Of a stretch of 64,000 bases of DNA, positions 1 through 50,392 are shown one piece after another. The DNA is from Escherichia phage ECO07P1, in sequence record OP172784; one strand, 5' to 3'. A program made the position numbers and the translations under genes. Below the pieces are notes generated by a model. That model worked only from the letters and a program-made list of their open reading frames with translations, ran no database searches and had not been told where the DNA came from. The stretch's first letter is position 1, and each line of letters opens with the position of its first letter.

Positions 1-2498
1 GAGATTGGATGAAGCGAATGGAAGACATCGGTCTCGAAGCTCTCGGTATGAACGATTTTAAACTCGCTTATATCAGTGATACATATGGTTCAGAAATTGT
101 TTATGACCGAAAATTTGTTCGTGTAGCTAACTGTGATATTGAGGTTACTGGCGATAAATTTCCTGACCCAATGAAAGCAGAATATGAAATTGATGCTATC
201 ACTCATTATGATTCAATTGACGACCGTTTTTACGTCTTTGATTTGTTGAATTCAATGTACGGTTCAGTATCAAAATGGGATGCAAAGTTAGCTGCTAAGC
301 TTGACTGTGAAGGTGGTGATGAAGTTCCTCAAGAAATTCTTGACCGAGTAATTTATATGCCATTTGATAATGAGCGCGATATGCTCATGGAATATATTAA
401 TCTCTGGGAACAGAAACGACCTGCTATTTTTACTGGTTGGAATATTGAGGGATTTGACGTTCCGTATATCATGAATCGTGTTAAAATGGTTCTCGGTGAA
501 CGTAGTATGAAACGTTTCTCTCCAATCGGTCGAGTAAAATCTAAACTAATTCAAAATATGTACGGTAGCAAAGAAATTTATTCTATTGATGGCGTATCTA
601 TTCTTGATTATTTAGATTTGTACAAGAAGTTCGCATTTACTAATTTGCCATCATTCTCTTTGGAATCAGTTGCTCAGCACGAAACCAAAAAAGGTAAATT
701 GCCGTACGATGGTCCTATTAATAAACTTCGTGAGACTAATCATCAACGATACATTAGTTATAACATCATTGACGTAGAATCAGTTCAAGCAATTGATAAA
801 ATTCGTGGGTTTATCGATCTAGTTTTAAGTATGTCTTATTACGCTAAAATGCCTTTTTCTGGTGTAATGAGTCCTATTAAAACTTGGGATGCTATTATTT
901 TTAACTCATTGAAAGGTGAACATAAGGTTATTCCTCAACAAGGTTCGCACGTTAAACAGAGTTTTCCAGGTGCATTTGTATTTGAACCTAAAGCGATTGC
1001 TCGTCGATACATTATGAGTTTTGACTTGACGTCTCTGTATCCGAGTATTATTCGTCAGGTTAACATTAGTCCTGAAACTATTCGTGGTCAGTTTAAAGTT
1101 CATCCAATTCATGAATATATCGCAGGAACAGCTCCTAAACCGAGTGATGAATATTCTTGTTCTCCGAATGGATGGATGTATGATAAGCATCAAGAAGGTA
1201 TCATTCCAAAGGAAATCGCTAAAGTATTTTTCCAGCGTAAAGATTGGAAAAAGAAAATGTTCGCCGAAGAAATGAATGCCGAAGCTATTAAAAAGATTAT
1301 TATGAAAGGTGCAGGGTCTTGTTCAACTAAACCAGAAGTTGAACGATATGTTAAGTTCAATGATGATTTCTTAAATGAATTATCGAATTACACCGAATCT
1401 GTTCTTAATAGTCTGATCGAAGAATGTGAAAAAGCAGCTACACTTGCTAACACAAATCAGCTGAACCGTAAAATTCTTATTAACAGTCTTTATGGTGCTC
1501 TTGGTAATATTCATTTCCGCTACTATGATTTGCGAAATGCTACTGCTATCACAATTTTTGGTCAAGTTGGTATTCAGTGGATTGCTCGTAAAATTAATGA
1601 ATACCTAAATAAAGTATGTGGAACTGATGGTGAAGATTTCATCGCGGCGGGTGATACTGATTCGGTATATGTTTGTGTAGATAAAGTTATTGAAAAAGTA
1701 GGTCTTGACCGCTTTAAAGAACAAAATGATTTAGTTGAATTCATGAATCAGTTCGGTAAGAAAAAGATGGAACCTATGATTGATGTTGCATATCGTGAGT
1801 TATGTGATTATATGAATAACCGCGAGCATCTGATGCATATGGACCGTGAAGCTATTTCTTGTCCTCCGCTTGGTTCAAAGGGTGTTGGTGGATTTTGGAA
1901 AGCGAAAAAACGTTATGCTCTGAATGTTTATGATATGGAAGATAAGCGATTTGCTGAACCACATCTAAAAATCATGGGTATGGAAACTCAACAGAGTTCA
2001 ACACCAAAAGCAGTACAAGAAGCTCTCGAAGAAAGTATTCGTCGTATTCTTCAGGAAGGCGAAGAGTCTGTCCAAGAATACTATAAGAACTTTGAGAAAG
2101 AATATCGTCAACTTGACTATAAAGTTATTGCTGAAGTAAAAACCGCGAACGATATAGCGAAATATGACGATAAAGGTTGGCCAGGATTTAAATGCCCGTT
2201 CCATATTCGTGGTGTGCTAACTTATCGTCGAGCTGTTAGTGGTTTAGGTGTAGCTCCAATTTTGGATGGAAATAAGGTAATGGTTCTTCCATTGCGTGAA
2301 GGAAATCCATTTGGTGACAAGTGCATTGCTTGGCCATCGGGTACGGAACTTCCAAAAGAAATTCGTTCTGATGTACTGTCTTGGATTGACTACTCAACTT
2401 TGTTCCAAAAATCGTTTGTTAAACCGCTTGCGGGCATGTGTGAATCGGCTGGCATGGACTATGAAGAAAAAGCTTCGTTAGACTTCCTGTTTGGCTGA
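1..2498 (+). CDS. 43: DNA polymerase gp43, 5'-truncated at window edge (C-terminal ~830 aa)
   Basis: Open frame from window start to TGA 2496-2498; family-B polymerase motifs (SFDLTSLYPSII, KILINSLYGALG, AAGDTDSVYV); recognisably T4 gp43. Confidence 0.95.
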   Translation, partial: DWMKRMEDIGLEALGMNDFKLAYISDTYGSEIVYDRKFVRVANCDIEVTGDKFPDPMKAEYEIDAITHYDSIDDRFYVFDLLNSMYGSVSKWDAKLAAKLDCEGGDEVPQEILDRVIYMPFDNERDMLMEYINLWEQKRPAIFTGWNIEGFDVPYIMNRVKMVLGERSMKRFSPIGRVKSKLIQNMYGSKEIYSIDGVSILDYLDLYKKFAFTNLPSFSLESVAQHETKKGKLPYDGPINKLRETNHQRYISYNIIDVESVQAIDKIRGFIDLVLSMSYYAKMPFSGVMSPIKTWDAIIFNSLKGEHKVIPQQGSHVKQSFPGAFVFEPKAIARRYIMSFDLTSLYPSIIRQVNISPETIRGQFKVHPIHEYIAGTAPKPSDEYSCSPNGWMYDKHQEGIIPKEIAKVFFQRKDWKKKMFAEEMNAEAIKKIIMKGAGSCSTKPEVERYVKFNDDFLNELSNYTESVLNSLIEECEKAATLANTNQLNRKILINSLYGALGNIHFRYYDLRNATAITIFGQVGIQWIARKINEYLNKVCGTDGEDFIAAGDTDSVYVCVDKVIEKVGLDRFKEQNDLVEFMNQFGKKKMEPMIDVAYRELCDYMNNREHLMHMDREAISCPPLGSKGVGGFWKAKKRYALNVYDMEDKRFAEPHLKIMGMETQQSSTPKAVQEALEESIRRILQEGEESVQEYYKNFEKEYRQLDYKVIAEVKTANDIAKYDDKGWPGFKCPFHIRGVLTYRRAVSGLGVAPILDGNKVMVLPLREGNPFGDKCIAWPSGTELPKEIRSDVLSWIDYSTLFQKSFVKPLAGMCESAGMDYEEKASLDFLFG

Positions 2499-2511
2499 TA
2501 GAATAAATCTA

Positions 2512-2531
2512 GGGACCTCCAGGTCCCTTTT
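2512..2531 (+). terminator. GC hairpin (gggacct/aggtccc) plus T-run after gene 43
   Basis: Inverted repeat followed by TTTTT directly after stop codon. Confidence 0.5.
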
Positions 2532-2615
2532 TCATACAAGTAATATAAATCTATACTTATGAAAAAGAGATGATTCTGGACCCTTTGGATTCCCTAAAAA
2601 TTTTTTCACAAAACT

Positions 2616-2645
2616 GTTTACAAGACCGTTACTCTGTGGTACTAT
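2616..2645 (+). promoter_or_regulatory. T4-type early promoter (GTTTAC, 18-bp spacer, TACTAT)
   Basis: GTTTAC at 2616-2621, -10 TACTAT after TGTGG; A/T-rich upstream tract. Confidence 0.45.
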
Positions 2646-2679
2646 ACAACTATCAACTAATACGGATTTGGAGAATGAA

Positions 2680-3060
2680 ATGAAAATCGCTATTTTGGTT
2701 ATTGCATTAGGTCTTACTGGTTGTGTAGCTCAAGGACCAGTAGTAAATCAGTCTGATGCAGGAAAAATTGTAAACTGTTCAAGCAAATTTTATAATCCTA
2801 ACGTCAAGTGTTATAAAGAGGCTCCAAAACAGACAGTAGAACAAATGCAGGCGAATTTTGACGAAGCTATTCGTCCAGATGAATCTGCTCAAGCATATCG
2901 TAATTCAGATGTAATTACACGCGAAGAAAAAATTGAAAGCTACTGCGCTGAACTTTGGGCTAATTGGGCTAATAATTATCAATGGCGTACTGGTAAAAAT
3001 GCTCCAATGGAGTATGTAGTGAATTCTTATAATTCATGTGTAAAAAATTTGACTAAGTGA
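2680..3060 (+). CDS. Putative lipoprotein (signal peptide with LTGC lipobox), conserved T4-like small ORF
   Basis: ATG at 2680 with GGAG SD (track ORF starts at upstream TTG 2668); N-terminal MKIAILVIALGLTGC. Confidence 0.5.
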   Translation: MKIAILVIALGLTGCVAQGPVVNQSDAGKIVNCSSKFYNPNVKCYKEAPKQTVEQMQANFDEAIRPDESAQAYRNSDVITREEKIESYCAELWANWANNYQWRTGKNAPMEYVVNSYNSCVKNLTK

Positions 3061-3067
3061 GGAAAAC

Positions 3068-3319
3068 ATGGAAACTTTAGTAGCAGGTTCAATTTTTATG
3101 GTTTTAGTTTCAGGCGTGTTGGCTATTATTATATACATGCTTCCATGGTTCATCGCCTTGATGCGTGGGTCAAAATCGACAGTAGGAATCTTTTTCACAT
3201 CTTTACTGTTTAACTGGTCAATTATTGGTTGGTTTATTACATTTATTTGGTCAATTGCAGGTGAAACTAAAAAGTCTGCGCAGCCAAATCAGGTAATTAT
3301 CATCAGAGAGAAGGAATGA
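3068..3319 (+). CDS. imm: Imm, superinfection immunity membrane protein (83 aa)
   Basis: 83-aa two-TM protein matching T4 Imm in length and position between 43 and 42. Confidence 0.8.
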   Translation: METLVAGSIFMVLVSGVLAIIIYMLPWFIALMRGSKSTVGIFFTSLLFNWSIIGWFITFIWSIAGETKKSAQPNQVIIIREKE

Positions 3320-3465
3320 AAAGCAAAATTATAGCAGCATTGCTTTTAATCTTGATGATTATAATAAGTATATACTATAGTGTAACGGTTCCTTGTATGA
3401 TTCCAACTATTATTTTAGGTTGGGGTTTATTACTGTTACAAGTTAAATATGAATGTATCAATTGA
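3316..3465 (+). CDS. Small hydrophobic membrane peptide (49 aa)
   Basis: ATG overlaps imm stop (ATGA); below the ORF-track size cutoff; hydrophobic throughout. Confidence 0.3.
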   Translation: MKSKIIAALLLILMIIISIYYSVTVPCMIPTIILGWGLLLLQVKYECIN

Positions 3466-3472
3466 GGTTTAA

Positions 3473-4213
3473 ATGATTAGTGACTCTATGACAGTTGAAG
3501 AAATCCGTCTTCATTTGGGAACTGCATTAAAGGAAAAAGATTTCGTAGTTGATAAAACTGGTGTTAAAACTATTGAAATTATTGGCGCATCATTTGTAGC
3601 AGATGAACCGTTTATTTTTGGCGCTCTTAATGATGAATACATTCAGCGTGAACTTGAATGGTATAAATCTAAGAGCTTGTTCGTTAAAGATATTCCGGGT
3701 GAAACACCGAAGATTTGGCAACAAGTAGCATCTTCTAAAGGTGAAATTAACTCAAATTATGGTTGGGCTATCTGGTCAGAAGATAACTATGCCCAGTATG
3801 ATATGTGTTTAGCTGAACTTGGTCAAAATCCTGATTCTCGACGTGGTATCATGATTTATACTCGTCCATCTATGCAGTTTGACTACAATAAAGATGGCAT
3901 GTCAGATTTCATGTGTACTAATACAGTACAGTACCTGATTCGTGATAAGAAAGTCAATGCAGTAGTAAGCATGCGCTCAAATGACGTGGTCTTCGGATTC
4001 CGTAATGATTATGCATGGCAAAAATACGTATTAGATAAATTAGTATCTGATTTGAATGCCGGCGATTCAACTCGTCAGTATAAAGCAGGTTCTATTATAT
4101 GGAATGTTGGAAGTCTTCATGTATATTCTCGTCATTTTTACTTGGTTGATCATTGGTGGAATACTGGCGAAACTCATATTGTGAAAAAAGATTATAATGG
4201 TGAGTGGAAATGA
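3473..4213 (+). CDS. 42: dCMP hydroxymethylase gp42 (246 aa)
   Basis: 246 aa, near-identical to remembered T4 gp42 (MISDSMTVEEIRLHLG...). Confidence 0.95.
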   Translation: MISDSMTVEEIRLHLGTALKEKDFVVDKTGVKTIEIIGASFVADEPFIFGALNDEYIQRELEWYKSKSLFVKDIPGETPKIWQQVASSKGEINSNYGWAIWSEDNYAQYDMCLAELGQNPDSRRGIMIYTRPSMQFDYNKDGMSDFMCTNTVQYLIRDKKVNAVVSMRSNDVVFGFRNDYAWQKYVLDKLVSDLNAGDSTRQYKAGSIIWNVGSLHVYSRHFYLVDHWWNTGETHIVKKDYNGEWK

Positions 4214-5052
4214 TTCAATTCGTAATTCCAAGTTATCAGCGTGTCGGGGCAGTTTCTGCCCTTAATATGTTTCCGACTGATTATGAACCCCATATTGTAG
4301 TGCGTGAACATGAAGAAAAAGCTTATTATGATGCTTATGGGTCTAGAGCTAAAATTATAGCTATTCCTGATGATGTTAATGGAATTGCCGGTACTCGTAA
4401 AGCAATTACTGATATGTATGCAGGTCAACGAATCTGGATGATTGATGATGATACTACTATTCGTATGAGTTCAATACGAAAGAGAGACGATAAACGGCGC
4501 GTAGATAAAATTAATCAATTAACTCGTGAACAGTTCTATGAATTGATTCAATACGTTGAGGATGCCATGGATTGCGGGTATTATCATGGCCATGCTCGTC
4601 TACCAATTTTTAAAATTACTTCATCTTGGGGTAATTATCGTGAAAACTCATATGGATTCACGAATACATGGTATGACCTCGGAAAACTTACGACAGAACA
4701 AATTGGGTATGGAAAAATTGATTTATGCGAAGATATGTATGCATTTCTCAATTTAATTAATCAAGGTTATCCGCATTTGGCCTTGTTCAAATATCTAGTT
4801 GTATCTGGAAAATCACACGCTCCCGGTGGGTGTAGTTCAATTCGTAGTAATTCTAAACATAATAGAGCGCTTGAGCAAATCAATAGAGAGTTTCCAGAGC
4901 AAGCTCGTTGGAAAACATCGAATATTGAAAAACGAAAATCGTTGGGTGAAGAAGATGAGCCATTAAAAGTTCTTCGCATGTGTGTTTCGCGTAAAGAAAA
5001 ATCAGAAGCGTTTCATAAGTTTAATGCTATTCATCCAATAGCAGTTGATTAA
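4210..5052 (+). CDS. Putative hydroxymethylcytosine glucosyltransferase, T2/T6 beta-glucosyl-HMC-alpha-glucosyltransferase type (280 aa)
   Basis: ATG at 4210 overlaps gene 42 stop (track ORF uses GTG at 4204); occupies the T4 beta-gt locus between 42 and uvsX; IWMIDDDTT acidic motif; 280 aa is the size I recall for T2/T6 beta-alpha-gt. Confidence 0.55.
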   Translation: MIQFVIPSYQRVGAVSALNMFPTDYEPHIVVREHEEKAYYDAYGSRAKIIAIPDDVNGIAGTRKAITDMYAGQRIWMIDDDTTIRMSSIRKRDDKRRVDKINQLTREQFYELIQYVEDAMDCGYYHGHARLPIFKITSSWGNYRENSYGFTNTWYDLGKLTTEQIGYGKIDLCEDMYAFLNLINQGYPHLALFKYLVVSGKSHAPGGCSSIRSNSKHNRALEQINREFPEQARWKTSNIEKRKSLGEEDEPLKVLRMCVSRKEKSEAFHKFNAIHPIAVD

Positions 5053-6657: not shown

Positions 6658-8085
6658 GTGGTAGAAATTATTCTTTCTCATCTCATATTTGATCAAGCTT
6701 ATTTTTCAAAAGTTTGGCCATATATGGATTCAGAATATTTTGAAAGTGGTCCAGCTAAAAATACATTCAAATTAATTAAATCTCATGTTAATGAGTACCA
6801 TAGCGTTCCATCTATTAATGCGTTAAATGTTGCATTAGAAAATAGTTCATTTACTGAAACAGAATATTCTGGTGTAAAAACACTTATTTCAAAACTAGCT
6901 GATTCTCCAGAAGACCATAGCTGGTTAGTAAAAGAAACAGAAAAATACGTTCAGCAAAGGGCGATGTTTAATGCTACGTCTAAAATAATTGAAATTCAAA
7001 CTAATGCTGAGCTTCCTCCGGAAAAACGAAATAAGAAAATGCCAGATGTAGGTGCTATTCCTGACATCATGCGTCAAGCATTATCAATTTCATTTGATAG
7101 CTACGTTGGCCATGATTGGATGGATGACTACGAAGCACGTTGGCTATCTTATATGAATAAAGCTCGTAAGGTTCCATTTAAACTCAAAATTCTAAATAAA
7201 ATTACTAAAGGCGGAGCTGAGACTGGAACACTGAACGTTTTAATGGCTGGTGTTAACGTTGGTAAGTCATTAGGATTATGTTCATTAGCAGCAGATTATT
7301 TACAGCTCGGACATAATGTTCTTTACATTTCCATGGAAATGGCAGAAGAAGTCTGTGCTAAGCGTATTGATGCTAATATGCTTGATGTTTCTCTTGATGA
7401 CATTGATGATGGACATATTTCTTACGCTGAATATAAAGGAAAAATGGAAAAATGGCGTGAGAAATCTACTCTCGGTCGTTTAATCGTTAAACAGTATCCT
7501 ACTGGTGGAGCAGACGCTAATACATTTCGATCGCTTTTAAACGAATTAAAGCTCAAGAAGAATTTTGTTCCAACAATCATTATTGTCGACTATCTAGGTA
7601 TTTGTAAATCTTGTCGCATCAGAGTTTATTCAGAAAATAGTTACACAACTGTTAAAGCTATCGCAGAGGAATTGCGTGCTCTGGCTGTTGAAACCGAAAC
7701 TGTTCTTTGGACCGCAGCACAAGTTGGTAAGCAAGCTTGGGATTCTTCTGATGTTAACATGAGCGATATTGCAGAATCTGCCGGTCTTCCAGCAACAGCC
7801 GATTTTATGCTTGCGGTCATTGAAACCGAGGAGTTAGCAGCGGCTGAACAGCAACTCATTAAGCAAATCAAATCACGATATGGCGATAAGAATAAATGGA
7901 ATAAGTTTTTGATGGGTGTTCAAAAAGGAAATCAAAAATGGGTAGAAATTGAGCAAGATTCTACTCCAACCGAAGTGAACGAAGTAGCAGGTTCACAGCA
8001 GATTCAGGCTGAACAGAATCGCTATCAAAGAAATGAATCTACTCGAGCCCAGTTAGATGCTTTAGCAAATGAATTAAAATTTTAG
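6658..8085 (+). CDS. 41: gp41 replicative DNA helicase (DnaB-like), GTG start
   Basis: 475 aa; Walker A GVNVGKS; GTG start with GGAG SD; matches T4 gp41. Confidence 0.95.
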   Translation: MVEIILSHLIFDQAYFSKVWPYMDSEYFESGPAKNTFKLIKSHVNEYHSVPSINALNVALENSSFTETEYSGVKTLISKLADSPEDHSWLVKETEKYVQQRAMFNATSKIIEIQTNAELPPEKRNKKMPDVGAIPDIMRQALSISFDSYVGHDWMDDYEARWLSYMNKARKVPFKLKILNKITKGGAETGTLNVLMAGVNVGKSLGLCSLAADYLQLGHNVLYISMEMAEEVCAKRIDANMLDVSLDDIDDGHISYAEYKGKMEKWREKSTLGRLIVKQYPTGGADANTFRSLLNELKLKKNFVPTIIIVDYLGICKSCRIRVYSENSYTTVKAIAEELRALAVETETVLWTAAQVGKQAWDSSDVNMSDIAESAGLPATADFMLAVIETEELAAAEQQLIKQIKSRYGDKNKWNKFLMGVQKGNQKWVEIEQDSTPTEVNEVAGSQQIQAEQNRYQRNESTRAQLDALANELKF

Positions 8086-8114
8086 TTTACAAGCTGACAA
8101 GACTATGGTATAGT
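8085..8114 (+). promoter_or_regulatory. T4-type early promoter upstream of dmd
   Basis: GTTTAC 8085-8090, 18-bp spacer, TATAGT 8109-8114. Confidence 0.45.
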
Positions 8115-8142
8115 AGTCTTGTTGGTTAAATGAGGAGATGTT

Positions 8143-8326: not shown

Positions 8327-8563
8327 ATGCATATTGTTTTATTTAAACCTACTCCGTATAATGTCAGGAAAAATACTCAATTCAAAGCACTTGTTGCAGA
8401 TACGTGGGAATTGGTGTTAGATATTCCACCAGAAGAAAGTCCTCCATCTGGTCGAGTGGAATTTATTAAGTTTGCTGTGCGCCCTACGAAGCGACAGATT
8501 CGCCAATGCAAAAGATACTTTCGTAAAATCGTCAAGTTAGAGAAACAGTTATTGATGCAGTAA
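8327..8563 (+). CDS. Hypothetical protein (T4 61.4 region)
   Basis: ATG at 8327 with GAGGG SD right after dmd stop; track ORF starts at 8285. Confidence 0.45.
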   Translation: MHIVLFKPTPYNVRKNTQFKALVADTWELVLDIPPEESPPSGRVEFIKFAVRPTKRQIRQCKRYFRKIVKLEKQLLMQ

Positions 8564-8570
8564 AATAGTA

Positions 8571-8600
8571 GTTTACAAGCTGATAGAGTTGTGTTATAGT
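8571..8600 (+). promoter_or_regulatory. T4-type early promoter
   Basis: GTTTAC 8571-8576, 18-bp spacer, TATAGT 8595-8600. Confidence 0.45.
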
Positions 8601-8631
8601 AATTCTATCAGCTAATCGCGGAGAAAAGAAA

Positions 8632-8886
8632 ATGATGCTAGTTAATAGAGAATATCAGTTTAAATCAGAAGAAGATTTGGAAAAATTCGCAAGTGGTTGT
8701 GAACTGAATAGACGCACAGCTAAAGTCATAGGATTAAAACCCTTTACAGTTCTAGATTGTGAAGTTTCTAAATTCCGCAGAGGGTGTTCTATTAGCGGTC
8801 ATGCTCTGGTTGATGGGAACACATTTTTCTTTGTTTTTAGCGTCAGAGAACTTTTATTGATTAACGAACTTGAGGAAATAAAATAG
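8632..8886 (+). CDS. Hypothetical protein
   Basis: 84-aa ORF with GGAG SD. Confidence 0.45.
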   Translation: MMLVNREYQFKSEEDLEKFASGCELNRRTAKVIGLKPFTVLDCEVSKFRRGCSISGHALVDGNTFFFVFSVRELLLINELEEIK

Positions 8887-16300: not shown

Positions 16301-16330
16301 GTTTACAATCTGAAGTAAAAATGTTATAGT
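16301..16330 (+). promoter_or_regulatory. T4-type early promoter upstream of srd
   Basis: GTTTAC 16301-16306, 18-bp spacer, TATAGT. Confidence 0.45.
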
Positions 16331-16359
16331 ATAAGTAGTTAACCGTCCGTGAGAAAAAT

Positions 16360-21500: not shown

Positions 21501-21596
21501 AGTTTAAATTTTTTCATAAAACTATATACATCAGTAGTTGATTATGGTACTATATCAATATCAACTACTGATACAGAAAACAACTTGGAGAATAAA

Positions 21597-21866
21597 ATGG
21601 AAAACTTAATTATCATCGAACAATCTTTCAACGATTATGGTATGGCTTATGGTTATCGTGCGATAATGGAAGATTCTCGTGGATGTGTTATCGATATTGC
21701 TGAATGTAAAGATTTACTGCAGCTTTTGAAGATTGTTCGCAAAAATTGGGATTGTGAAAACATTAAAGTTCGTGTTGTAACGGAAGAAGAAACTGTTTTT
21801 CATGATGTAAAATTTGCCAAAGGTGCTGCTACTCTTCTGAAACGCATCGCTCCACTGTTCAATTAA
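21597..21866 (+). CDS. Hypothetical protein
   Basis: ATG at 21597 with GGAG SD; track ORF begins at TTG 21585. Confidence 0.45.
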   Translation: MENLIIIEQSFNDYGMAYGYRAIMEDSRGCVIDIAECKDLLQLLKIVRKNWDCENIKVRVVTEEETVFHDVKFAKGAATLLKRIAPLFN

Positions 21867-28909: not shown

Positions 28910-29467
28910 ATGCAGAAAACGAATCCGGGTTTACAGAGACTATTTCAGATTCCGACATTTACCCTATCGAACAATGACTTGACTAGTGAAATGAAGGTCA
29001 AAATTGCTGATACAGCAAGATACTCTTTAAAACAAAATCCTAATCAGGATAAAGCAGAAGTCATCGAAAGATGCCGTATCGCTGTGTATGCAGAGTTTTT
29101 TGTAGCAGATTGGCTGAGCGGGTATGTTAACAAAGGCCAAGAGGATGTTAATGACCCGTATACATATGCATGGGATGTATTGGCTCATCCAAGATATTGC
29201 GGGCTTCGTGTAGAAGTCAAAACACACCAAACTGACTCACGTTGGATTTCTGTAACAACAGGATGCAGCGGAGAGTATCCATACGGTTCTGGAATAAATC
29301 TAGGGCCCATTCTGAATCATCAGGTCGCTGACTGTATAATTATATTCAACACTAAAGAAATTCATCCAGGTGTCATCCAGTACACTCCGAAGTTCATTGG
29401 TGATAGAGAAGACCTTCGTAAAGTTGTAAGAAAAAGCAACTACAACGGATGGTATCTTTCCATTTAA
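28910..29467 (+). CDS. denB: DenB endonuclease IV
   Basis: 185 aa, matching T4 DenB size and position next to rIIB. Confidence 0.8.
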   Translation: MQKTNPGLQRLFQIPTFTLSNNDLTSEMKVKIADTARYSLKQNPNQDKAEVIERCRIAVYAEFFVADWLSGYVNKGQEDVNDPYTYAWDVLAHPRYCGLRVEVKTHQTDSRWISVTTGCSGEYPYGSGINLGPILNHQVADCIIIFNTKEIHPGVIQYTPKFIGDREDLRKVVRKSNYNGWYLSI

Positions 29468-29483
29468 AAATTTTCACAAAACG

Positions 29484-29513
29484 GTTTACATACCACAAGG
29501 ACTGTGGTACTAT
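29484..29513 (+). promoter_or_regulatory. T4-type early promoter (inside the denB 3' region)
   Basis: GTTTAC 29484-29489, 18-bp spacer, TACTAT. Confidence 0.45.
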
Positions 29514-29547
29514 ACAACTATCAACTGATACGGATTTGGAGAATAAA

Positions 29548-29754
29548 ATGTTTACTACAGCTGAATTAAAACGAGCAAAAGCTAAGAAAGGGCAAGGAAA
29601 ATATAAAGCTGAATTAGTTAAAGAACTTCAGTTTGCTGAGGCTGAATTGAATTCAATGATTATTCAAAATGCTCCAGAAACTGAAATTGCTCTTAAGCGT
29701 ATTGCGAATAAGTGTCTTCGTGATGCAATCGTCGATCTTTTAGCGGATTATTGA
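29548..29754 (+). CDS. Hypothetical protein (68 aa)
   Basis: ATG at 29548 with GGAG SD; track ORF begins 29449 inside the promoter. Confidence 0.4.
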   Translation: MFTTAELKRAKAKKGQGKYKAELVKELQFAEAELNSMIIQNAPETEIALKRIANKCLRDAIVDLLADY

Positions 29755-30023
29755 GTAAAATGAAATTTAAATTTTATTACGCTAAACATAAAATAACTGA
29801 TGAGTTTGTGTCAGTTGAATATTCTAGCGATGATGAAGGTATGATTTATACTCGCTTGGGACTATCGCACTGGGAGTCTGATACGCCTTATTTTTCAACT
29901 CCTGAAGAAATTACACGCTTAGTTAATGGTCATATGAATGACCACTGGGATGTAATTCTTTCAGATAGTCTTAAAGCGGCTATTAATAGTAATGAAATGA
30001 AAATCGCTGAGATTGAACTATGA
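29751..30023 (+). CDS. Hypothetical protein (90 aa)
   Basis: ATGA coupling to previous ORF. Confidence 0.45.
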   Translation: MSKMKFKFYYAKHKITDEFVSVEYSSDDEGMIYTRLGLSHWESDTPYFSTPEEITRLVNGHMNDHWDVILSDSLKAAINSNEMKIAEIEL

Positions 30024-30106
30024 GTTCATTGTGGTGGTGTTTTGTTTGGTTAATTAGTATTCCATTGATTTGTTTAGTATTTACTTTTGTGATGAGGTTA
30101 TTATGA
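30020..30106 (+). CDS. Tiny hydrophobic peptide (28 aa)
   Basis: ATG overlapping previous stop; MSSLWWCFVWLISIPLICLVFTFVMRLL. Confidence 0.3.
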   Translation: MSSLWWCFVWLISIPLICLVFTFVMRLL

Positions 30107-30201
30107 AAATTTTGAATTCTGTACTTATTGCTTGTGCGTGGTGGGTTGCACAAGTTTCAGCGGTAGTAGTTGGTATTCACATTTATTACGAATATTTTTA
30201 A
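30103..30201 (+). CDS. Tiny hydrophobic peptide (32 aa)
   Basis: ATGA coupling; MKILNSVLIACAWWVAQVSAVVVGIHIYYEYF. Confidence 0.3.
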   Translation: MKILNSVLIACAWWVAQVSAVVVGIHIYYEYF

Positions 30202-30208
30202 AAAAGTT

Positions 30209-30238
30209 GTTTACAAGACTGTTCCTCTGTGGTATTAT
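30209..30238 (+). promoter_or_regulatory. T4-type early promoter
   Basis: GTTTAC 30209-30214, 18-bp spacer, TATTAT. Confidence 0.45.
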
Positions 30239-30266
30239 TACCCTATCAACTACGGAGGAACAGAAA

Positions 30267-30380
30267 ATGAAAAAGATTGTTAAAGCTATATGGAATGTAG
30301 TTATAATATTAGTAGTTTTGAGTATATTCTCAATCGTTTTAATGATTGATGTATTAAACGCTTACTTTGGATTTATGTGA
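30267..30380 (+). CDS. Tiny single-TM peptide (37 aa)
   Basis: ATG at 30267 with GGAGG SD; MKKIVKAIWNVVIILVVLSIFSIVLMIDVLNAYFGFM. Confidence 0.35.
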   Translation: MKKIVKAIWNVVIILVVLSIFSIVLMIDVLNAYFGFM

Positions 30381-33144: not shown

Positions 33145-33290
33145 GTCCATTCATAGGTATTACAAGCGCTGCATTAGTATCCGGTGGCATTTTACTGGCG
33201 GGTTTAGGTGTTGTTCCTGCCGTAGCAGGAGGTCTTCTTGCGTTCGGAATTCAACGTGTTATCATGACAGTTATCACAGTCATGCAGTAA
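33141..33290 (+). CDS. Small Gly/Ala-rich membrane peptide (49 aa)
   Basis: ATGA coupling with gene 52 stop; hydrophobic. Confidence 0.35.
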   Translation: MSPFIGITSAALVSGGILLAGLGVVPAVAGGLLAFGIQRVIMTVITVMQ

Positions 33291-33295
33291 TTTTA

Positions 33296-33322
33296 GGGAG
33301 AGCCGAGGCTCTCCCTTTTTTA
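33296..33322 (+). terminator. Rho-independent terminator
   Basis: gggagagcc-gaggctctccc followed by TTTTTT. Confidence 0.6.
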
Positions 33323-33346
33323 TTTCAAAAATTTTTTCACAAAATG

Positions 33347-33376
33347 GTTTACAACCAAAGCATACTGTGGTACTAT
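33347..33376 (+). promoter_or_regulatory. T4-type early promoter upstream of motA
   Basis: GTTTAC 33347-33352, 18-bp spacer, TACTAT. Confidence 0.5.
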
Positions 33377-33417
33377 ACAACTATCAACTGCTGATACAGA
33401 ATTACGGAGATTAGAAA

Positions 33418-34053
33418 ATGTCTAAAGTAACTTACATCATCAAAGCTTCTAACGATGTTCTGAATGAAAAAACTGCTGCGATTTTAATTACCATTGCTAA
33501 GAAAGATTTCATTACAGCTGCAGAAGTTCGTGAGGTGCATCCAGATTTAGGTAACGCAGTAGTTAACAGTAATATTGGGGTATTGATTAAAAAAGGCCTG
33601 GTGGAGAAATCTGGCGATGGATTAATCATTACAGGTGAAGCTCAGGATATTATTTCAAATGCAGCAACTTTATATGCACAGGAAAACGCTCCTGAACTGC
33701 TGAAAAAACGAGCAACTCGTAAAGCTCGTGAGATTACTTCCGATATGGAAGAAGATAAAGACTTCATGTTAAAACTTTTAGATGAAAATGGATTTGTTCT
33801 TAAAAAGGTTGAAACTTACCGCAGTAACTATCTTGCTATTTTAGAAAAACGCACTCACGGAATTCGTAATTTTGAAATTAACAACAATGGAAATATGCGA
33901 ATTTTTGGATACAAAATGATGGAACATCATATTCAGAAATTTACTGATATCGGAATGTCATGCAAAATCGCTAAAAATGGTAATGTGTATCTTGACATTA
34001 AACGCTCGGCAGAAAACATTGAAGCAGTAATCACCGTAGCATCTGAACTGTGA
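33418..34053 (+). CDS. motA: MotA, middle-transcription activator
   Basis: 211 aa, near-identical to remembered T4 MotA. Confidence 0.95.
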   Translation: MSKVTYIIKASNDVLNEKTAAILITIAKKDFITAAEVREVHPDLGNAVVNSNIGVLIKKGLVEKSGDGLIITGEAQDIISNAATLYAQENAPELLKKRATRKAREITSDMEEDKDFMLKLLDENGFVLKKVETYRSNYLAILEKRTHGIRNFEINNNGNMRIFGYKMMEHHIQKFTDIGMSCKIAKNGNVYLDIKRSAENIEAVITVASEL

Positions 34054-37402: not shown

Positions 37403-40400
37403 TTATGCTAAACGAACGATATAGTTAAAAGCAATGTTTTTAACCGTGTTTTCTGTATTACCTGTACTATTTACAGTGATAGTATGACCATGCGAGCCAA
37501 TTGCTACCGTGTGGGTATGAGCACCGATACCTACAGTATGGGTATGAGCACCAATACCTACTGTGTGAGCATGGTTACCCGTAGCGCTAGTAGTTCCTGA
37601 CCAACTATGGGTGTGGGCACCGTCTGAAGAAGTTTTGGCCATATTCGACGCTGCAGTAGCACCGCTCACGGTTCCAGTGATTTTAGCGTTGCCGTTTGGA
37701 CCTGCACTATTGTATCCATCATAGAATATGCTAGTGGGTATGCCGCCTTGCATCTGAGGGCCTGAACGAGCGTGTTGGTGCGCACCAGCGGAACTAGTAT
37801 TACCACTCACTGTATGGCTATGGTTGCCGGTGGTATTACTGGTCTTAGTACCATAATCAAAGCTTGAAGTCGTTTTGCTACCGTAATCAAAACTTGATGT
37901 GGTTTTAGTACCTAAGTCAGTACTTGAAGCCGATGCACTATGGCTATGAGCCTTAACACCATCTTCTTCTGCGCTCAAAACATCACGACCACTTGGTTTA
38001 CCCTTGATAGTTTGCCCGCGCATATCAGGCAGAGAGCCGGAAGGATACACCGCAGCTAACTTAGGATACAAGCCAACATCAAATGTTTGACCTTCCATTA
38101 TGGCATAACCTTCAGGAGGTGTATCAGTAGGCCAAGGAATCGGAGCTCCAATAGGATAACTTGAAACAATATCAGTTTTAAGTGATTCAATCGTACTGTT
38201 TAAGTTAGCAAAATTACCAGAACCACCAGTAATATTACCATCAGTACCAAGAGTAGCAGCACCGGCAATAATTTTACCAGGTGTGCGGAAGTCACCGGTA
38301 CGACGGAATTCCCAACTTATATCGGTTCCGGTAGTACTAGTACCTTGGTGATAATGGACACGGAAGTCTCCTTGGGCAATTAAGGTACCAATAGAATAAG
38401 TACTATCACCCTTTACATACCGTTGTTTAACAATAGGAATGTATTCAGAAGTAGCAGTACGCTCTATATTCATATAAATTGGAGCTCTTACGTTTACATC
38501 GTTCTGAGATGCAAAGGAACCACAACCCGTTGGGCGAACTCCATCAGAAGCCTCAATATCTATATAAGCATTTTGTCCTAATTGCATTCTAAAGTTGGCA
38601 TTAATGCGAGAGTTACTATTTATAGTAGTTAAAGCATTATTTTGATCTACTATAAAAGAATCTCTTCCTAACCCAACCATGCCATCGTTTAATCCTATTC
38701 TCACAGGTCTCAAAGAGCTGTGAATGTCTCCGCTTTCGCCTTCATTTTGATTGGTTGGAATAATATAGAAGTTGGCTTCTGAACGACGGAAAATAGCGCC
38801 ATATTCGGAATTCCAAATTCTTAATGCATTAGCAGTTCCACCAATTTTTACTTGGCCGGTAATAGAAGAACCACCTTGGACAAACAAACCGTTAGACATA
38901 GTAACATTGCCACCGAAAGAACCTGTACCGGAGGCACTTATATTTCCAAGGCCTATGATATGACCTGTTTCGACAGTTCCGTTAAATTTAAAGTTAACCG
39001 GACCTACCGTTTGACCTGATGCAGGATTAGTACGTTGAGCGTAAAAATAATAACCTTGCCCATCAGCTACTTCAAAAACGGTTTCACGACTACGATCACC
39101 AGATGCGTTAAATGAATTACCCCACACTTTAACTGTAACAGGGCTTTTGTTTTGACCTGAGCGTGTGCCACTATTCCAGTATATGCTTCTAGTACCATCT
39201 ACAGCCGTCGGAGCATTAAATTGGAATCCCTGATTATCAGGTCCATCAATAATTATACCTTTATTAAGACGAAAAGCTAATGTAGAATCAATATTACCTG
39301 TTGCAGCGTTAAAGCTAATACTGTTAGCACCGGTTACTAGTTTAAGAATACCCGGGTTAACTTCCATGCCTTCTTGAGTATTAATATTAGTTTTGCCTTT
39401 ACCACGGAAATAGTGGTTCATTTTACCGCCTGAGTTATAGCCAATATGTGTCTGGCCGTCTCCACCAGTGTTTCCATCAGCTTGTGTTTGAACCGATAAA
39501 AAGGCAACGTTGGTTCCAGGCATAATCCATGTTGTGCCTTGATCTTCTGAGCGTCCAAATAATGCTTTACGTGTACTACGGAAACTGTCAGGAGTAATAG
39601 AAGCAACAGAATATCCACCGCCAACTAGATCAAATACACCGGTTTTTTTGTATGACAAGCCAGTTACAGTGTCACCGAGAACAAGATACTTATCGCCCAT
39701 TACACCGACGTTACCATAATCACTAGACGGGAAATCTGCAGTGAATGTACCTAATGCAAGGCTATTACGCCCAGCCATTCGGCCGTCGTTACGAATACCA
39801 TATTGTTTAGATGATGGAGTATTACCCGTCCACCAAGACATTTCATCTGCTTGGCCAGTCTGAGCTGTACAGATTTCATGCCACATGGTTCCGGCAGCTT
39901 TAGCGCGAACTTTACGAAGATAGTTTATACCGTTTGTTTCACCGGTTCCAGGATAAACATAGTTAACCAAAGATTGAGAATCATATTGCCCAAAGGCTTT
40001 GGCATCGTGAATAACAGTATCAACCGCAATGCGTTTAGTTACTAACGAATCTGATGCTAAAATACGGTTAGCTTGAAATTCACCGCCGTTTATAGAACGG
40101 AAATAGAATTCGCTATTAATAATGCTTCCGGTTCCTTGTCTAACTCTAAGACGTATTTCACCGTCAGTTGTAGTTTGAGGACGAGCATATATAACGCCTC
40201 GTTCAATGCCATCGGCATTTTCAAACCAAAGATGGGCATTGGAAGTATCATTTGAGGCTCTTGTATAAAATGAACCTTGTGTAGATCTGAAAACTTTTGC
40301 AGTTATGCCTTCAGTAGAACCAATAGGTCCATTTACGGTCATTCCACCAGTTTGTACATAATCGCCGTTTAATTTCAAAAGACCATTGATAGTCACATTT

Positions 40401-40587: not shown

Positions 40588-41253
40588 TTAATAATAGCCG
40601 AAATCTTGAACAGAATCCTTAATTACGATTTGGTCAAATCGTGGAACATGTGAAGGTTGAGATGCGGGATTCTGTGAGAAAAAGTTTGGCGCAGTTAAGT
40701 TACCTGTCATAGTGTCGCCAGATCGTAACACTCTAGAGTTCGCATTTGCCGTAACAGTATTTATTGCTCCATCGACGTAGTCCTTTCTAGTAAGATCACG
40801 AGCTTCTATAGGAGCAGCTGCGTTACTTTTTACTTGACCTACTGCTATCACAATGCCTTTTGTACTAATATCACCATTACGTGCATTAATTACAACAGTT
40901 CGGTCTGCTGAACCTTGTGATGATTTAAAACCAATACCATTCCACGAAACAATATCGATATTTGTTACAGCAAAAGTAGCATTATCACCATTACCTGGAT
41001 AAATACCGCATGGGTTTGTGTTGTTTACAGCATATGGGACTTGAACACCGCCGTTAAATGTTACCTTTGATGCATAAGTACCACCATTAGCTTTAGAAAC
41101 GAAATCGTTATCTGCAGCTTGTGGTTTATTATATTCTGAATATATTTTAAATGATTTATAGAGTACATCGTCACCGGCTGGATTCAATGGAAAATTTCCT
41201 TGATGCCAAATAACAGAGCCTCCAGTTGTTGAACCTACTTTTAAATCAGCCAT
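40588..41253 (-). CDS. 36: gp36 long tail fibre distal connector
   Basis: 221 aa, matches T4 gp36. Confidence 0.9.
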
Positions 41254-42439: not shown

Positions 42440-45400
42440 CTATTCAATCCATTCAAATTTAACAGATTTATTCACTGGGTCAGGAATAATGCGAACATTA
42501 CCAATTCGTAAGAAATCACGAATAGTAAGATTCCCCATTGTAGCATTATCAGATGGTAAAGCACCGATATCAGACGGCTGAGGAGGGTTACCTCCATCAA
42601 ATACCTGAACAAAACTCGACCAAGAGTTTTTGGTTTTCTGCCATGTACGCGTCCAGCGAGTGGTACGTGCTTCTGGAGTCGTTGGATAAGTAATCCAATC
42701 TTGGTAAAGCGAATCAAGTGTGTTACCAAACTGAGTCAATGTACCAGGAGATTTAACTTCTTCACCACGTTCTAAGTATGGAAGTCCAGTCACTTCATTA
42801 GTTTTTTCAACCATTTTAAAATAACCTGGGAACTGGTTATAAGTGGCTGAATCGTTGATGTCTATAGACCAAAAACCAACATTATCCATTGTAGGTTTTC
42901 TGCTATAGATGTCAGAAGTCTTATCTCCTGTAACCCTTGCATATTTCTGAACATCTAAGCCGTTGTTAATGGTAGCTTTGTTGCTTACCGTAAGGAAGTT
43001 GTTAATAGTAACGGCACCTTCGAATCTAGATTCGCTATTAGCAACTAGACTGGTGGTTGTAATACCTGAAGCTTTAGTAACATTAAGCCCGCCATTAATT
43101 ACAGCAGTCCCATTACCAAGAACGAAATTACCTGCCGATATTTCTAAATCACCGTTCCGTCTAAAGGACCATTTGCGCTGGGTTTTTACTGCATCTATAT
43201 AATGAAGAATAAAAGCACCTTCATCATTTGAGGTAGGTTCATTTGTCAATGTACCAAAGGTAAATGTTCCATCTTTATAACGTTGCTTAATTAAAGGAAC
43301 GTATCTAGATGCGCCAGCTAGAGTAGTTATATTTAAAAATACAGGAGCTTTAACATTGCTATCATGTTGAGAGGTCCAAGTACCCGAGCCTTGCGAAAGT
43401 GAAGTGAACTCAATGTAATTCTGAGCACCTACAGTAGAATTGCTATTGATTGCAGTAGCACCGGTTAATGTGGTATTATTTGAAGTAACAGAACCACTCA
43501 AATTAACCACACCTGTAGCGGTTAAAGTACTTTCAATTCTTGCAGGCTGTTTAAATGTCATAGTAGCATTAATATCCTGGGCTACATCACGACGAATAAA
43601 CTGTGTACTATCCAGGTTATCCAGTTTATCCGAGTCTGCTGCTTTAGCCAAACGCGGCAGGAAGTTACCAAGAGTTTTGTTTAACTCGTACGGAGAGATA
43701 GCATAGCTATTTTTCTCGTACAGGTCAAGAGCCTGGGTCGAACCTGCAGTTGCATTACCGACAAAAGTAATTGCGCCTTCAGACATTTTAACAAAACCTC
43801 TTATCGCAGTAGTAGCTGCCCAAGTAGGTTCACTCTGCACAATCCATTTTAAATTTTTTGGAGATACAGCAGTATTTGCTGACGTTCCAGCCACAGTTTC
43901 AGACTGAGTTGCAACTTTAATAACACCTTCCTGCGATTCGGTAGATTTAGTACCTAAAAGCTTTTTAGGAGTTATTAAAACATTATCCAATGTTCCTGCA
44001 GCAGCTTCAACTTGTGTAGCTACACGAAGTGTACCACGCTGTGTCTCATTTGCTTCAAGAATATTAAGTGTATAATGGTCCCAGAGAGTTCCTGATTCAA
44101 CTAATCCAGATAGAGCAACAACAGAAGTACGATCAGTACTATTAAATCTGGTTTTAATTTTTAATGGTGTAGAGATACGAGTATCGTCGACGCCTGCGTC
44201 GAATTCAACTTGTGTAGCAATTTCAGCTATACCACTTAAACTTTCAGTTGCTCTACGGTCATTTAAAGTTTTAGGAGTGACTGCACGAGTATAATCAGTT
44301 CCTGTATTAACTTCACTTTGTGTAGCAATTTCAATTAAACCAATTCTTGCATCAGTTGATGTCTTTTTATGTAACGTTTCTGGCGTTACAACAGCATTTG
44401 CCCATCCTTCTTGACTCTGTCCAGCAATTACTTCACTTTCAACTGCTAAAATTACTGCACCTTGTTGCGTTGGAGTAGCTTTATACTGATCCAAAGCTTT
44501 AGGCGAAACGACTAAATTATTAGTGTTTTTATTATAAACGTTTGTACCATTTAATTCACGACTAGAAGCTGGAGTAGCTCCTGCGGTAGATACAAAGGTT
44601 ACAATACCAGATAATGATTCAGAACCTTGACGAGCTTGAAGCTTTTTAGGAGTGATGATTGTAGTATCATCAGTACCTGCATTAGTTTCCTGTTGCGTAG
44701 CAATTTCAGCAACACCTCTACGAGTTTCTGTAGCAGTTCTTTCATTCAGCTTTTTAGGAGTGATGATAATATCATCAGCAAAAGAGAATGTAGTGTTCTG
44801 ATTCACTTGAGCAGTAGTTGCTATTCTTGCGATACCTCTGCGAGTTTCTGTAGCAGTACGATTAGCTAATGTTTCCGGAGTAATTGCTAATTCTTTTTGT
44901 GGAGAATTTTCTAAATCGACGTTAGCTTGAGCTTGTGTAGCTAAAGCAATTACGCCTAATCTTGCTCTAGTAGAATCATTTAAAGAATCAACTCTTTCTA
45001 CGGTTGGAACGTTTTGCTGTACAACCCAATATTTTCCATCAGAATCTTCTATATAAGCAAGCTCTAAAACTGGAACATAATTAGTTTCACCGTTAAAAAC
45101 TAATTCTTGAACAGTTACCCATTCAGCTTCAGGTGGATATTCTGAACGTTTTGGGAATTGCAGCAATTGAACTGAAGAAGCAATTTTATCTTCACCGGCA
45201 GCTTTGATTTTAACTGTTTGTCCTTTTCTCATGTAATTCATGGAAATTTTAACAGTATCACCAACAGAAATATTAGTTGGAAGCTTAAGCTCAATTGTCT
45301 GAGCTGTTCCGTTATTCGCACCAAATACCATAACTTCTTCATTTGGACGAATATTTGAATTAGTTGTTATAATACGTAAACGTGCTTTATTATCCCCGTC

Positions 45401-47901: not shown

Positions 47902-48551
47902 TTAAACTCCGCATGCCTGCTGGTGGTGAAAGATACATTGATGGTAAATCAGTTTATAAATTATACTTAATGATAAAACAACATATGAATGGAAAGTATG
48001 ATGTAATTAAGTATAATTGGTGCATGCGGGTGTCTGATGCCGCTTATCAAAAGCGAAGGGATAAGTATTTTTTCCAGAAGTTATCAGAAAAATATAAATT
48101 AAAGGAACTTGCTTTAATATTTATAAGCAATCTTGTTGCTAACCAAGATGCTTGGATTGGTGACATCTCTGACGCTGATGCACTTGTGTTTTATCGTGAA
48201 TATATCGGACGCTTAAAGCAAATTAAATTTAAGTTTGAAGAAGATATTCGCAACATTTATTATTTTAGTAAAAAAGTTGAAGTTTCTGCTTTTAAAGAAA
48301 TTTTTGAATATAATCCAAAAGTTCAATCAAGTTATATTTTTAAACTACTTCAATCGAATATAATTTCGTTTGAGACGTTTATCTTGCTTGATTCGTTTTT
48401 AAATATAATTGATAAACATGATGAACAGACTGATAATTTAGTCTGGAATAATTATTCTATAAAGTTAAAAGCTTATAGAAAAATTTTAAATATTGATTCA
48501 CAGAAAGCCAAAAGTGTTTTCATTGAAACTGTGAAATCTTGTAAGTATTAA
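47898..48551 (+). CDS. 59: gp59 helicase loader
   Basis: 217 aa, near-identical to remembered T4 gp59. Confidence 0.9.
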   Translation: MIKLRMPAGGERYIDGKSVYKLYLMIKQHMNGKYDVIKYNWCMRVSDAAYQKRRDKYFFQKLSEKYKLKELALIFISNLVANQDAWIGDISDADALVFYREYIGRLKQIKFKFEEDIRNIYYFSKKVEVSAFKEIFEYNPKVQSSYIFKLLQSNIISFETFILLDSFLNIIDKHDEQTDNLVWNNYSIKLKAYRKILNIDSQKAKSVFIETVKSCKY

Positions 48552-48650: not shown

Positions 48651-49559
48651 ATGTTTAAACGTAAATCTACTGCTGAACTCGCTGCACAAATGGCTAAACT
48701 GGCTGGAAATAAAGGTGGTTTTTCTTCTGAAGATAAAGGCGAGTGGAAACTGAAACTCGACAATGCGGGTAACGGTCAAGCAGTAATTCGTTTTCTTCCG
48801 TCTAAAAATGATGAACAAGCACCATTCGCAATTCTTGTAAATCACGGTTTCAAGAAAAATGGTAAATGGTATATTGAAAACTGTTCATCTACCCACGGTG
48901 ATTACGATTCTTGTCCAGTATGTCAGTACATCAGTAAAAATGATTTGTATAACACTGACAATAAAGAGTACGGTCTTGTTAAACGTAAAACTTCTTACTG
49001 GGCTAACATTCTTGTAGTAAAAGACCCAGCTGCTCCAGAAAATGAAGGTAAAGTATTTAAATACCGTTTCGGTAAGAAAATCTGGGATAAAATCAATGCA
49101 ATGATTGCAGTTGATGTTGAAATGGGTGAAACTCCGGTTGATGTAACTTGTCCGTGGGAAGGTGCTAACTTTGTACTGAAAGTTAAACAAGTTTCTGGTT
49201 TTAGTAACTACGACGAATCTAAATTCCTGAATCAATCTGCGATTCCAAACATTGATGATGAATCTTTCCAGAAAGAACTGTTCGAACAAATGGTTGACCT
49301 TTCTGAAATGACTTCTAAAGATAAATTCAAATCGTTTGAAGAACTGAGCACTAAGTTCAGCCAAGTTATGGGAACTGCTGCTATGGGTGGTGCCGCTGCA
49401 ACTGCCGCTAAGAAAGCTGATAAAGTTGCTGATGATTTGGATGCATTCAATGTTGATGACTTCAAAACAAAAACTGAAGATGATTTTATGAGCTCAAGCT
49501 CTGGCAGTTCATCTAGTGCTGATGACACGGACCTGGATGACCTTTTGAATGATCTTTAA
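48651..49559 (+). CDS. 32: gp32 single-stranded DNA-binding protein
   Basis: 302-aa ORF, acidic Ser/Asp-rich C-terminus; matches T4 gp32. Confidence 0.95.
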
Positions 49560-49581
49560 TAGATTATATTACTAATTAATT

Positions 49582-49606
49582 GGGGACCCTAGAGGTCCCC
49601 TTTTTA
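49582..49606 (+). terminator. Rho-independent terminator after gene 32
   Basis: ggggacc-ctaga-ggtcccc followed by TTTTT. Confidence 0.6.
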
Positions 49607-49630
49607 TTTCAAAAATTTTTTCACAAAACT

Positions 49631-49660
49631 GTTTACAAGCATAAAGCTTTGTGGTACTAT
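49631..49660 (+). promoter_or_regulatory. T4-type early promoter
   Basis: GTTTAC 49631-49636, 18-bp spacer, TACTAT. Confidence 0.5.
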
Positions 49661-49703
49661 ACAACTATCGGCAATACTGCTGATAATTAAAGAGGAAAAT
49701 AAC

Positions 49704-50367: not shown

Positions 50368-50392
50368 TACCCTAACAACTGAGGAGAATAAA

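Follow-up and report, generated by a model that had tools for sequence, protein, structure and literature searches.

The early promoters of bacteriophage T4 (Pe) have been described as 'uber UP/-35/TGn/-10' promoters with extra consensus regions (PMC2988021), in which GTTTAC occupies positions -36 to -31, an A-rich stretch lies at -40 to -44, and a GT-rich stretch is found before -12 (PMC1524935). Recombination at PeSL (promoter-early stem-loop) cassettes built around such promoters has been proposed for T4-type phages, with the denB-ndd region and the pair T4 and PST among the cases described (Arbiol et al. 2010, PMC2839356; Comeau et al. 2014, PMC4122927). In RB49 and phi1, PeSL mini-circles were detected by inverse PCR, and a protein that recognises the stem-loop was put forward as a speculation (PMC2839356). 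A second comparison is offered by deletion between short repeats in T4, where small patches of homology (<50 bp) reportedly suffice for recombination (Singer et al. 1982, as cited in PMC2839356) and about half of 13 deletion mutants involve a GGGC motif (Mosig et al. 1998, as cited in PMC2839356).

We analyzed 64,000 nucleotides of Escherichia phage ECO07P1 (OP172784; hereafter, the window), in which the early genes lie on the + strand in the order 43, imm.1, imm, 42 ... uvsX, 41 ... dda ... motB ... 39, rIIA, rIIB, denB, ndd, 52, motA ... asiA, followed by tail fibre genes on the other strand and then by rnh ... 32, frd, td, nrdA .... Positions 2000-5000 are 100% identical to Escherichia phage ECO07P3 (OP172786.1, Tequatrovirus; reverse strand) and match hundreds of T4-like phages at 92-98% identity; by local blastn, the entire window corresponds to OP172786.1 read across the record ends, with an end overlap of 55 bp. 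These 55 bp are identical at both ends of that record (window 33217-33271), so that the record breaks a short distance upstream of the motA promoter; the record leaves unannotated a motA.1-like ORF whose end is at 33290. The five dispersed cassettes described below are T4-type early promoters with leaders, orthologous to those of T4 and partly in the PeSL arrangement. We assign a probability of about 0.85 to the reading that they form one descent-related promoter subfamily that also serves as a set of crossover points for small ORFs.

Anatomy and positional orthology of the cassettes

The initial annotation had listed five copies of a dispersed promoter-leader repeat. All five are present where it placed them, on the + strand, and a repeat search groups them into one family (2602-2659, 21510-21567, 29470-29527, 33333-33390, and 49617-49674), together with two further, more diverged relatives at 30195-30252 and 50324-50381 (Table 1). 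The 20-mer TGTGGTACTATACAACTATC occurs exactly four times in the window, at 2635, 29503, 33366, and 49650; zero occurrences are expected, and none of 100 dinucleotide-preserving shuffles contained a match. The closer of the two additional promoters, P30210, is 81% identical to copy 1 over 58 nt and has a 17-nt spacer of the copy-1 class.

Table 1. Promoter cassettes and upstream stem-loops in the window (64,000 nt; +1 positions are predicted)
Feature	Positions	Strand	Elements or basis
Copy 1, early promoter cassette before imm.1	2595-2682	+	UP ~2595-2615; GTTTACA 2616-2622; TG, then -10 TACTAT 2640-2645; predicted +1 A2652; GGAG 2670-2673; ATG 2680 (sequence, promoter scan)
Copy 2, cassette directly 3' of denB	29463-29550	+	-35 29485-29490; -10 29508-29513; predicted +1 29520; ATG 29548
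Copy 3, motA early promoter cassette	33318-33420	+	-35 33348-33353; -10 33371-33376; predicted +1 33383; SD CGGAG; ATG 33418
Copy 4, cassette before frd.3	49601-49706	+	-35 49632-49637; -10 49655-49660; predicted +1 49667; ATG 49704
Copy 5 (diverged), after motB-like gene, before 89-aa ORF	21505-21599	+	-35-like TATACA 21525-21530; -10 TACTAT 21548-21553; predicted +1 21560; ATG 21597
P30210, related early promoter before ndd.4-like ORF MKKIVKAIW	30195-30269	+	-35 30210-30215; -10 TATTAT 30233-30238; ATG 30267
P50339, more distant related early promoter	50324-50395	+	-35 50339-50344; -10 50362-50367; ATG 50393
Terminator-like stem-loop and T-run after gene 43	2511-2528	+	89 nt upstream of copy-1 -35
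Terminator-like stem-loop (9 bp, T-run) after gene 52 and motA.1-like ORF	33295-33316	+	abuts copy-3 UP element
Gene 32 terminator-like stem-loop	49582-49600	+	abuts copy-4 UP element

The cassettes share a common layout. An A/T-rich tract, AAAAATTTTTTCACAAAAC(T/G)G in copies 1-4 and TTTAAATTTTTTCATAAAACTA in copy 5, directly precedes the -35 region. The heptamer GTTTACA, which had been assigned to every copy, is found with a 17-nt spacer and TACTAT in copies 1-4 but not in copy 5, which has ATATACA, a weaker -35, and TATGGTACTATATCAATATCAACT. TGTGG stands directly before TACTAT (TATGG in copy 5), forming an extended -10, and a simple promoter scan picks out the copies with this TG. The +1 region reads ACAACT-A-TCAACT; the start is predicted at the middle A, seven nt past the -10, and the leader runs for 28-37 nt from there to the ATG, with GGAG as the Shine-Dalgarno (SD) site in copies 1, 2, 3, and 5. 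A similar leader had been claimed for all copies; that of copy 4 is unlike those of the other copies and diverges after ...CAACTATC (GGCA instead of AACT). The leader said to be common to copies 1 and 2 is indeed common over ATACGGATTTGGAGAAT, preceded by A in copy 1 and by G in copy 2. We found no support for a conserved RNA element in the leader: predicted folding is no better than that of shuffled sequence (z ~0), and a whole-window scan returned no Rfam family match for the leaders. The scan, run at Rfam gathering thresholds, returned zero matches anywhere in the window and thus no group I intron either, although td (~52259-53268) is annotated as split by an intron carrying I-TevI.

These features suggest how the cassettes would work. 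As sigma-70 promoters, Pe would be used by host RNA polymerase without phage factors, the A/T-rich UP element serving the alpha C-terminal domains, followed by the -35 GTTTACA, the 17-nt spacer, and the extended -10 (TGn and TACTAT); the ATG after the leader would begin the first early gene of a transcription unit. Gene orientation is matched throughout, with the copies preceding imm.1, the ORF after denB, motA, frd.3, and the ORF after motB. GGAG in early mRNAs is a known target of RegB. The GGAG sites of the cassettes fit this target, and RegB may cleave them.

A promoter-leader reading of these repeats had been proposed and is borne out by the order UP, GTTTACA, 17 nt, TGn-TACTAT, leader, SD, and ATG before early genes, and by the presence of these cassettes at the corresponding loci in T4. 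We compared the window with three stretches of T4 and with KarlGJung, Sf24, teqhal, and EO1 by blastn chaining followed by reading of the junction sequences. The five cassettes are found at the same loci in all of these relatives, each with its own spacer (Sf24 for copies 2, 3, and 5 only, since the stretch compared stops short of copies 1 and 4), with the upstream half of copy 4 lost in EO1. This distribution marks them as early promoters that are old and conserved in position, not as recent insertions. The T4 cassette upstream of imm.1 has a predicted +1 that we count as T4 map unit 27,044, the start of a region described as downstream of Pe26.4, Pe20.3, and Pe19.8 (PMC6024815); as the T4 GenBank record carries no promoter features, this is the one copy to which a T4 promoter name can be tied. 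This promoter of the Pe26.4 region and the motA early promoter of T4 share with the window the same elements and spacing (UP, GTTTAC(A/T), 17 nt, TGn, TA(Y)(W)AT) and the same downstream genes, and each of the five copies has an orthologue of nearly identical sequence in T4 itself (for Pe features, PMC2988021, PMC1524935, PMC6024815). Nothing substantial separates the promoters of the window from those of T4 beyond a few spacer substitutions and a 3-nt leader indel, although the small ORFs behind copy 2 are different. By analogy with T4, we predict that the cassettes are active as promoters in ECO07P1.

Terminator-like stem-loops are found upstream of three copies, after genes 43, 52, and 32 (Table 1), and a terminator downstream of gene 32 is reported to be conserved in 5/6 T4-like genomes (PMC1524935). 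These copies would restart transcription just past an intrinsic terminator, which is the PeSL layout, and the early region of the window thus appears organized like that of T4, with units that restart at very strong host-type promoters just past terminators. A PeSL comprises a stem-loop terminator, an AT-rich region, a sigma-70-like early promoter, an SD site, and an ATG, and adjoins small variable ORFs; the window cassettes resemble this arrangement in part and fit the PST/T4 PeSL consensus TTTACW-N17-TAYWAT. The likeness is incomplete in that the stem-loop lies directly upstream only in copies 3 and 4, whereas that of copy 1 is set well apart and a scan of the copy-2 region reported none. 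At copy 5, the annotated upstream gene ends at ~21500, inside the A/T-rich tract.

Block-wise similarity and mosaic spacers

A pattern scan of the + strand (GTTTAC(A/T), 17 nt, TGn, TAnnnT; intergenic) finds ~20 early-promoter-like sites in the window, and the five copies are one subfamily of this larger class. Within the four exact copies, the UP/-35 block (37 nt) is 76% identical versus 47% among the other promoters, and the block from -10 to ~+12 (29 nt) is 82% identical versus 49%; the spacer core (11 nt) is 27% identical in both groups, which is the chance level. The similarity thus reaches far beyond the -35 and -10 hexamers, to which it might have been confined, with identity spanning a UP block of ~19-27 nt and a -10/+1 block of 20-24 nt. 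It is real, but it comes in blocks and not as a continuous 90-bp repeat; the copies had been called near-identical over ~90 bp, and they are not, because their spacers are unrelated. A recent duplication or copy-paste repeat is ruled out by spacer cores at chance identity and by the retention of a particular spacer at each locus in six genomes. We infer a subfamily of ~7 copies per Tequatrovirus genome, related by descent, in which the blocks that contact RNA polymerase would be kept almost identical while the spacer core would drift or be exchanged. Subfamily cassettes are also present outside the window: seven places in ECO07P3 match the motA cassette by blastn and four are found in the window at comparable sensitivity, and therefore about three more lie outside it.

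A second early-promoter subfamily, GTTTACAAG...TATAGTA, is found at 8069-8138, 8555-8624, 16301-16331, and 60345-60375; the pair at 8069 and 8555, 486 bp apart, is 70% identical over 70 nt.

The strongest sequence evidence that exchange has taken place is the mosaicism of spacers and leaders. Among 4,804 non-orthologous promoter pairs, background spacer identity has its mode at 3-4/13, versus 13/13 between the spacer of the imm.1 promoter and that of P30210 in both T4 and KarlGJung; in the window, the imm.1 spacer differs at two positions from that of P30210 and at five from its own T4 orthologue. The frd.3 promoter occurs with two spacer alleles, AGCATAAAGCTTT in the window and T4 and TCCTTGTTCTTCC in KarlGJung, teqhal, and EO1, and the 3' half of the latter is the imm.1 spacer. 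When all subfamily cassettes in the sequences collected are classified, spacer classes a and b are found with leader classes L1 and L5 in all four combinations, and spacer classes d and e are combined with leader classes L1, L3, L4, and L8. Such mixing implies exchange within the invariant -10/+1 block, the same block to which the mini-circle crossovers of RB49 and phi1 were mapped (PMC2839356).

Sharing extends to other genera. A stretch of Citrobacter phage CF1 (Moonvirus) contains, at positions 384-473 of that stretch, a unit of terminator, UP, -35, spacer, and -10 that is 92% identical to window 49582-49669; the unit follows an ADP-ribosylase gene at a non-orthologous site and is flanked by sequence without similarity to the window. 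In a Mosigvirus, a subfamily cassette precedes the orthologue of a Tequatrovirus ORF. A scan of viral contigs for the exact 20-mer yielded nine stretches, too few for a population analysis.

A Tequatrovirus-type cassette is also found in PV654520.1 (Pseudomonas phage vB_PSGBLB0006, 142 kb), which is labelled as a Pseudomonas aeruginosa phage and carries no taxonomy line. Because the ORF downstream of this cassette matches one from E. coli T4-like contigs at 100% identity, the label may name the wrong host.

Small-ORF junctions in related phages

Cassette junctions at which ORFs are inserted, deleted, or replaced between the relatives lie at 2680-2693, 8550/8879, 29526-29550, 33368-33387, 49652, and 50327-50378. 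At copy 2, the variable stretch runs from 29526/29550 to 29753/29991 behind one and the same core: the window has ORF68, ORF87, and ndd.6, teqhal starts at ORF87, and T4 and EO1 start at ndd.6, such that three different ORFs stand directly behind the same promoter and leader in different phages. The two small ORFs of the window (68 and 87 aa; 29548-30023) are thus absent in T4 and EO1, and ORF87 is found without ORF68 in KarlGJung, Sf24, and teqhal; in KarlGJung, it stands behind the leader that normally belongs to P30210. The T4/PST exchange of ndd.4/.5 described in the PeSL papers concerns this same denB-ndd region, which holds copy 2 and P30210. At copy 3 (33368-33387), KarlGJung has an additional ORF and a second promoter flanked by a ~23-nt repeat, CTATCAAATAAATGAACTGAAAC, of the +1/leader sequence, and the match to the motA cassette stops at 33387, as in KarlGJung, in 8/40 evenly sampled Tequatrovirus rows. 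At 8550-8879, a window-specific ORF (8632-8886) with its own promoter lies between the TAAAATAGT(AG)TTTAC sequences that form the -35 regions of promoters 8572 and 8887.

Other junctions fall elsewhere in the cassette. In KarlGJung, teqhal, and EO1, a 78-aa ORF lies between the copy-1 leader and the imm.1 ATG (2680-2693); here, as at several junctions, only ~8-14 nt are shared, at the SD/ATG rather than at the promoter. The leader of P50339 (50327-50378) contains an 84-bp micro-ORF in T4 and KarlGJung; in EO1, a 258-bp ORF is found at the UP element of this promoter. EO1 (~48346-48360) also lacks 117 bp of window 49534-49652, comprising the 3' end of gene 32, the terminator, and the UP and -35 of copy 4, and the gp32 annotated in EO1 is accordingly longer; the loss may be genuine or may stem from misassembly. 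T4 lacks 200 bp (21604-21805) inside the ORF after copy 5, which is an internal deletion of that ORF and was not promoter-mediated. Crossovers between the -10 and the ATG, reported for PeSL (PMC2839356), are thus seen here too.

A further motA promoter, on the reverse strand of IMG/VR UViG 2974787500 (~2080-2140), lacks ~42 bp (UP and -35) in a phage that also has the KarlGJung-type insertion of an ORF plus promoter; it resembles the 'degraded half-PeSL' of Comeau et al. 2014 (PMC4122927).

The copies had further been described as known recombination substrates that shuffle or delete the modules between them, and relatives were expected to show breakpoints there. The first part is favored by the PeSL papers, by the local gain, loss, and swap of ORFs with junctions inside the cassettes, and by the mosaic spacers and leaders, but there is no excess of breakpoints over other spacers. 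Larger events are not seen: the 4-27 kb modules between copies are neither shuffled nor deleted in any relative examined, several of the large ones contain essential genes, and the six genomes are all collinear, without a rearrangement between any of the five distant copies. What the relatives do show is small-ORF junctions inside the cassettes. Two apparent exceptions were discarded. Megablast coverage suggested a 725-bp promoter-to-promoter deletion in KarlGJung (29485 to 30210), which blastn shows to be a 231-bp difference at 29526-29757, and two exact 20-mers 3137 nt apart in an IMG/VR locus (L006), first taken as copies 2 and 3 with a deletion between them, belong to another part of the genome.

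Counting junctions with an indel end in any of the five relatives gives 8/18 for early-promoter junctions versus 13/56 for all others (p=0.13), and 8/18 versus 7/13 when the comparison is made with other spacers of at least 40 nt, relative to which there is no enrichment. The five subfamily copies alone stand out from all other junctions (5/5 versus 16/69, p=0.0013), in a post hoc comparison based on few events. Breakpoint association in this six-genome sample is accordingly no stronger than at other intergenic spacers, unlike what the PeSL model describes, and survivorship could therefore explain much of it, because only indels that end at gene boundaries would be viable.

Recombination and alternative explanations

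The cassettes may act as crossover points because they provide 20-25-nt patches of identity, in the same orientation, before many small non-essential ORFs. We infer that the crossovers would be made by the general recombination system of the phage, and that they would add, remove, or swap single small ORFs and move spacers and leaders between cassettes. A role in recombination is partly supported, namely by the mosaicism and several of the junctions, for local small-ORF events only and without a clean statistical excess. The setting resembles short-homology deletion in T4 in that small dispensable segments lie between dispersed direct repeats of ~20-25 nt with a common orientation, and short shared sequence is found at the junctions; those studies concerned laboratory deletions at arbitrary repeats, whereas the repeats here are functional regulatory signals conserved across genomes.

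It is conceivable that the likeness of the copies reflects nothing but shared RNA polymerase contacts, with no role in recombination, and that the nearby indels are simply those that survived at gene boundaries. Such an account is in keeping with the chance identity of the spacer cores between the five copies, the conservation of each copy in position and with its own spacer in six genomes, the equal frequency of breakpoints at Pe junctions and at other spacers of at least 40 nt, and the one adjacent deletion (T4, 21604-21805) that is clearly not promoter-mediated. We nevertheless consider it doubtful. The ~13 other early promoters in the window differ in UP, discriminator, and +1 (47-49% versus 76-82% in the subfamily), so function does not demand the identity seen within the subfamily, and contacts with RNA polymerase do not account for non-contact spacers that are 13/13 identical at non-orthologous loci, for the occurrence of all four spacer/leader combinations, for the ~23-nt +1/leader repeat flanking the KarlGJung insertion, or for the 92% identity of a terminator-plus-promoter unit that different genera carry at different loci.

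The last of these observations, like the insertions of a cassette together with its ORF and the mini-circles and postulated stem-loop-recognising protein of RB49 and phi1 (PMC2839356), would also suit cassettes (terminator plus promoter, with or without an ORF) that are moved as units by a dedicated site-specific mechanism, neither as passive patches of homology nor as recent duplications. We hold this to be highly improbable: neither inverted repeats at the termini nor duplicated target sites are apparent in the alignments and junction sequences read, each of the five copies stays at its orthologous site throughout the genomes compared, the crossover points are scattered over UP, -35, +1, leader, and ATG instead of falling at one site, and short patches of homology are reported to suffice in T4 (as cited in PMC2839356). 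The least probable of the explanations weighed here treats the invariant blocks AAAAATTTTTTCACAAAAC and TGGTACTATACAACTATCAACT as recognition sites of an extra regulator, which would define a separately controlled Pe subclass, for example Alt-responsive promoters or targets of early shut-off. Block conservation does exceed that of the other early promoters of the window and extends to the Mosigvirus and Moonvirus examples, and in T4 only some early promoters are Alt-responsive, no one feature being known to decide the response, and what shuts the early promoters off is likewise unknown (PMC2988021). The genes served (imm.1, motA, frd.3, and small ORFs of the ndd region), however, have no obvious common function, and common descent with short-patch exchange explains the identity. 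Overall, it is improbable that the ~7-copy subfamily, with its invariant 24-nt -10/+1 and 19-nt UP blocks, is either a distinct regulatory class under an additional factor or a cassette that is actively moved between loci and even between Tevenvirinae genera, although the latter is hinted at by the 92%-identical CF1 unit at a non-orthologous site.

With the cassettes read as early promoters that double as crossover points, the same regulatory elements mark the sites at which small accessory ORFs come and go. The analysis adds a small independent data set in support of the published PeSL idea and opens no new question; for annotation, it provides the five predicted starts of Table 1 and delimits the variable ORFs at 29548-30023 and 8632-8886. 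Repeats of another kind are found in the tail-fibre genes, where three tandem 27-nt units lie within the distal tail-fibre gene on the minus strand (37490-37570), and more short repeats are found in the same gene region at 40862-41004 and 43959-44780.
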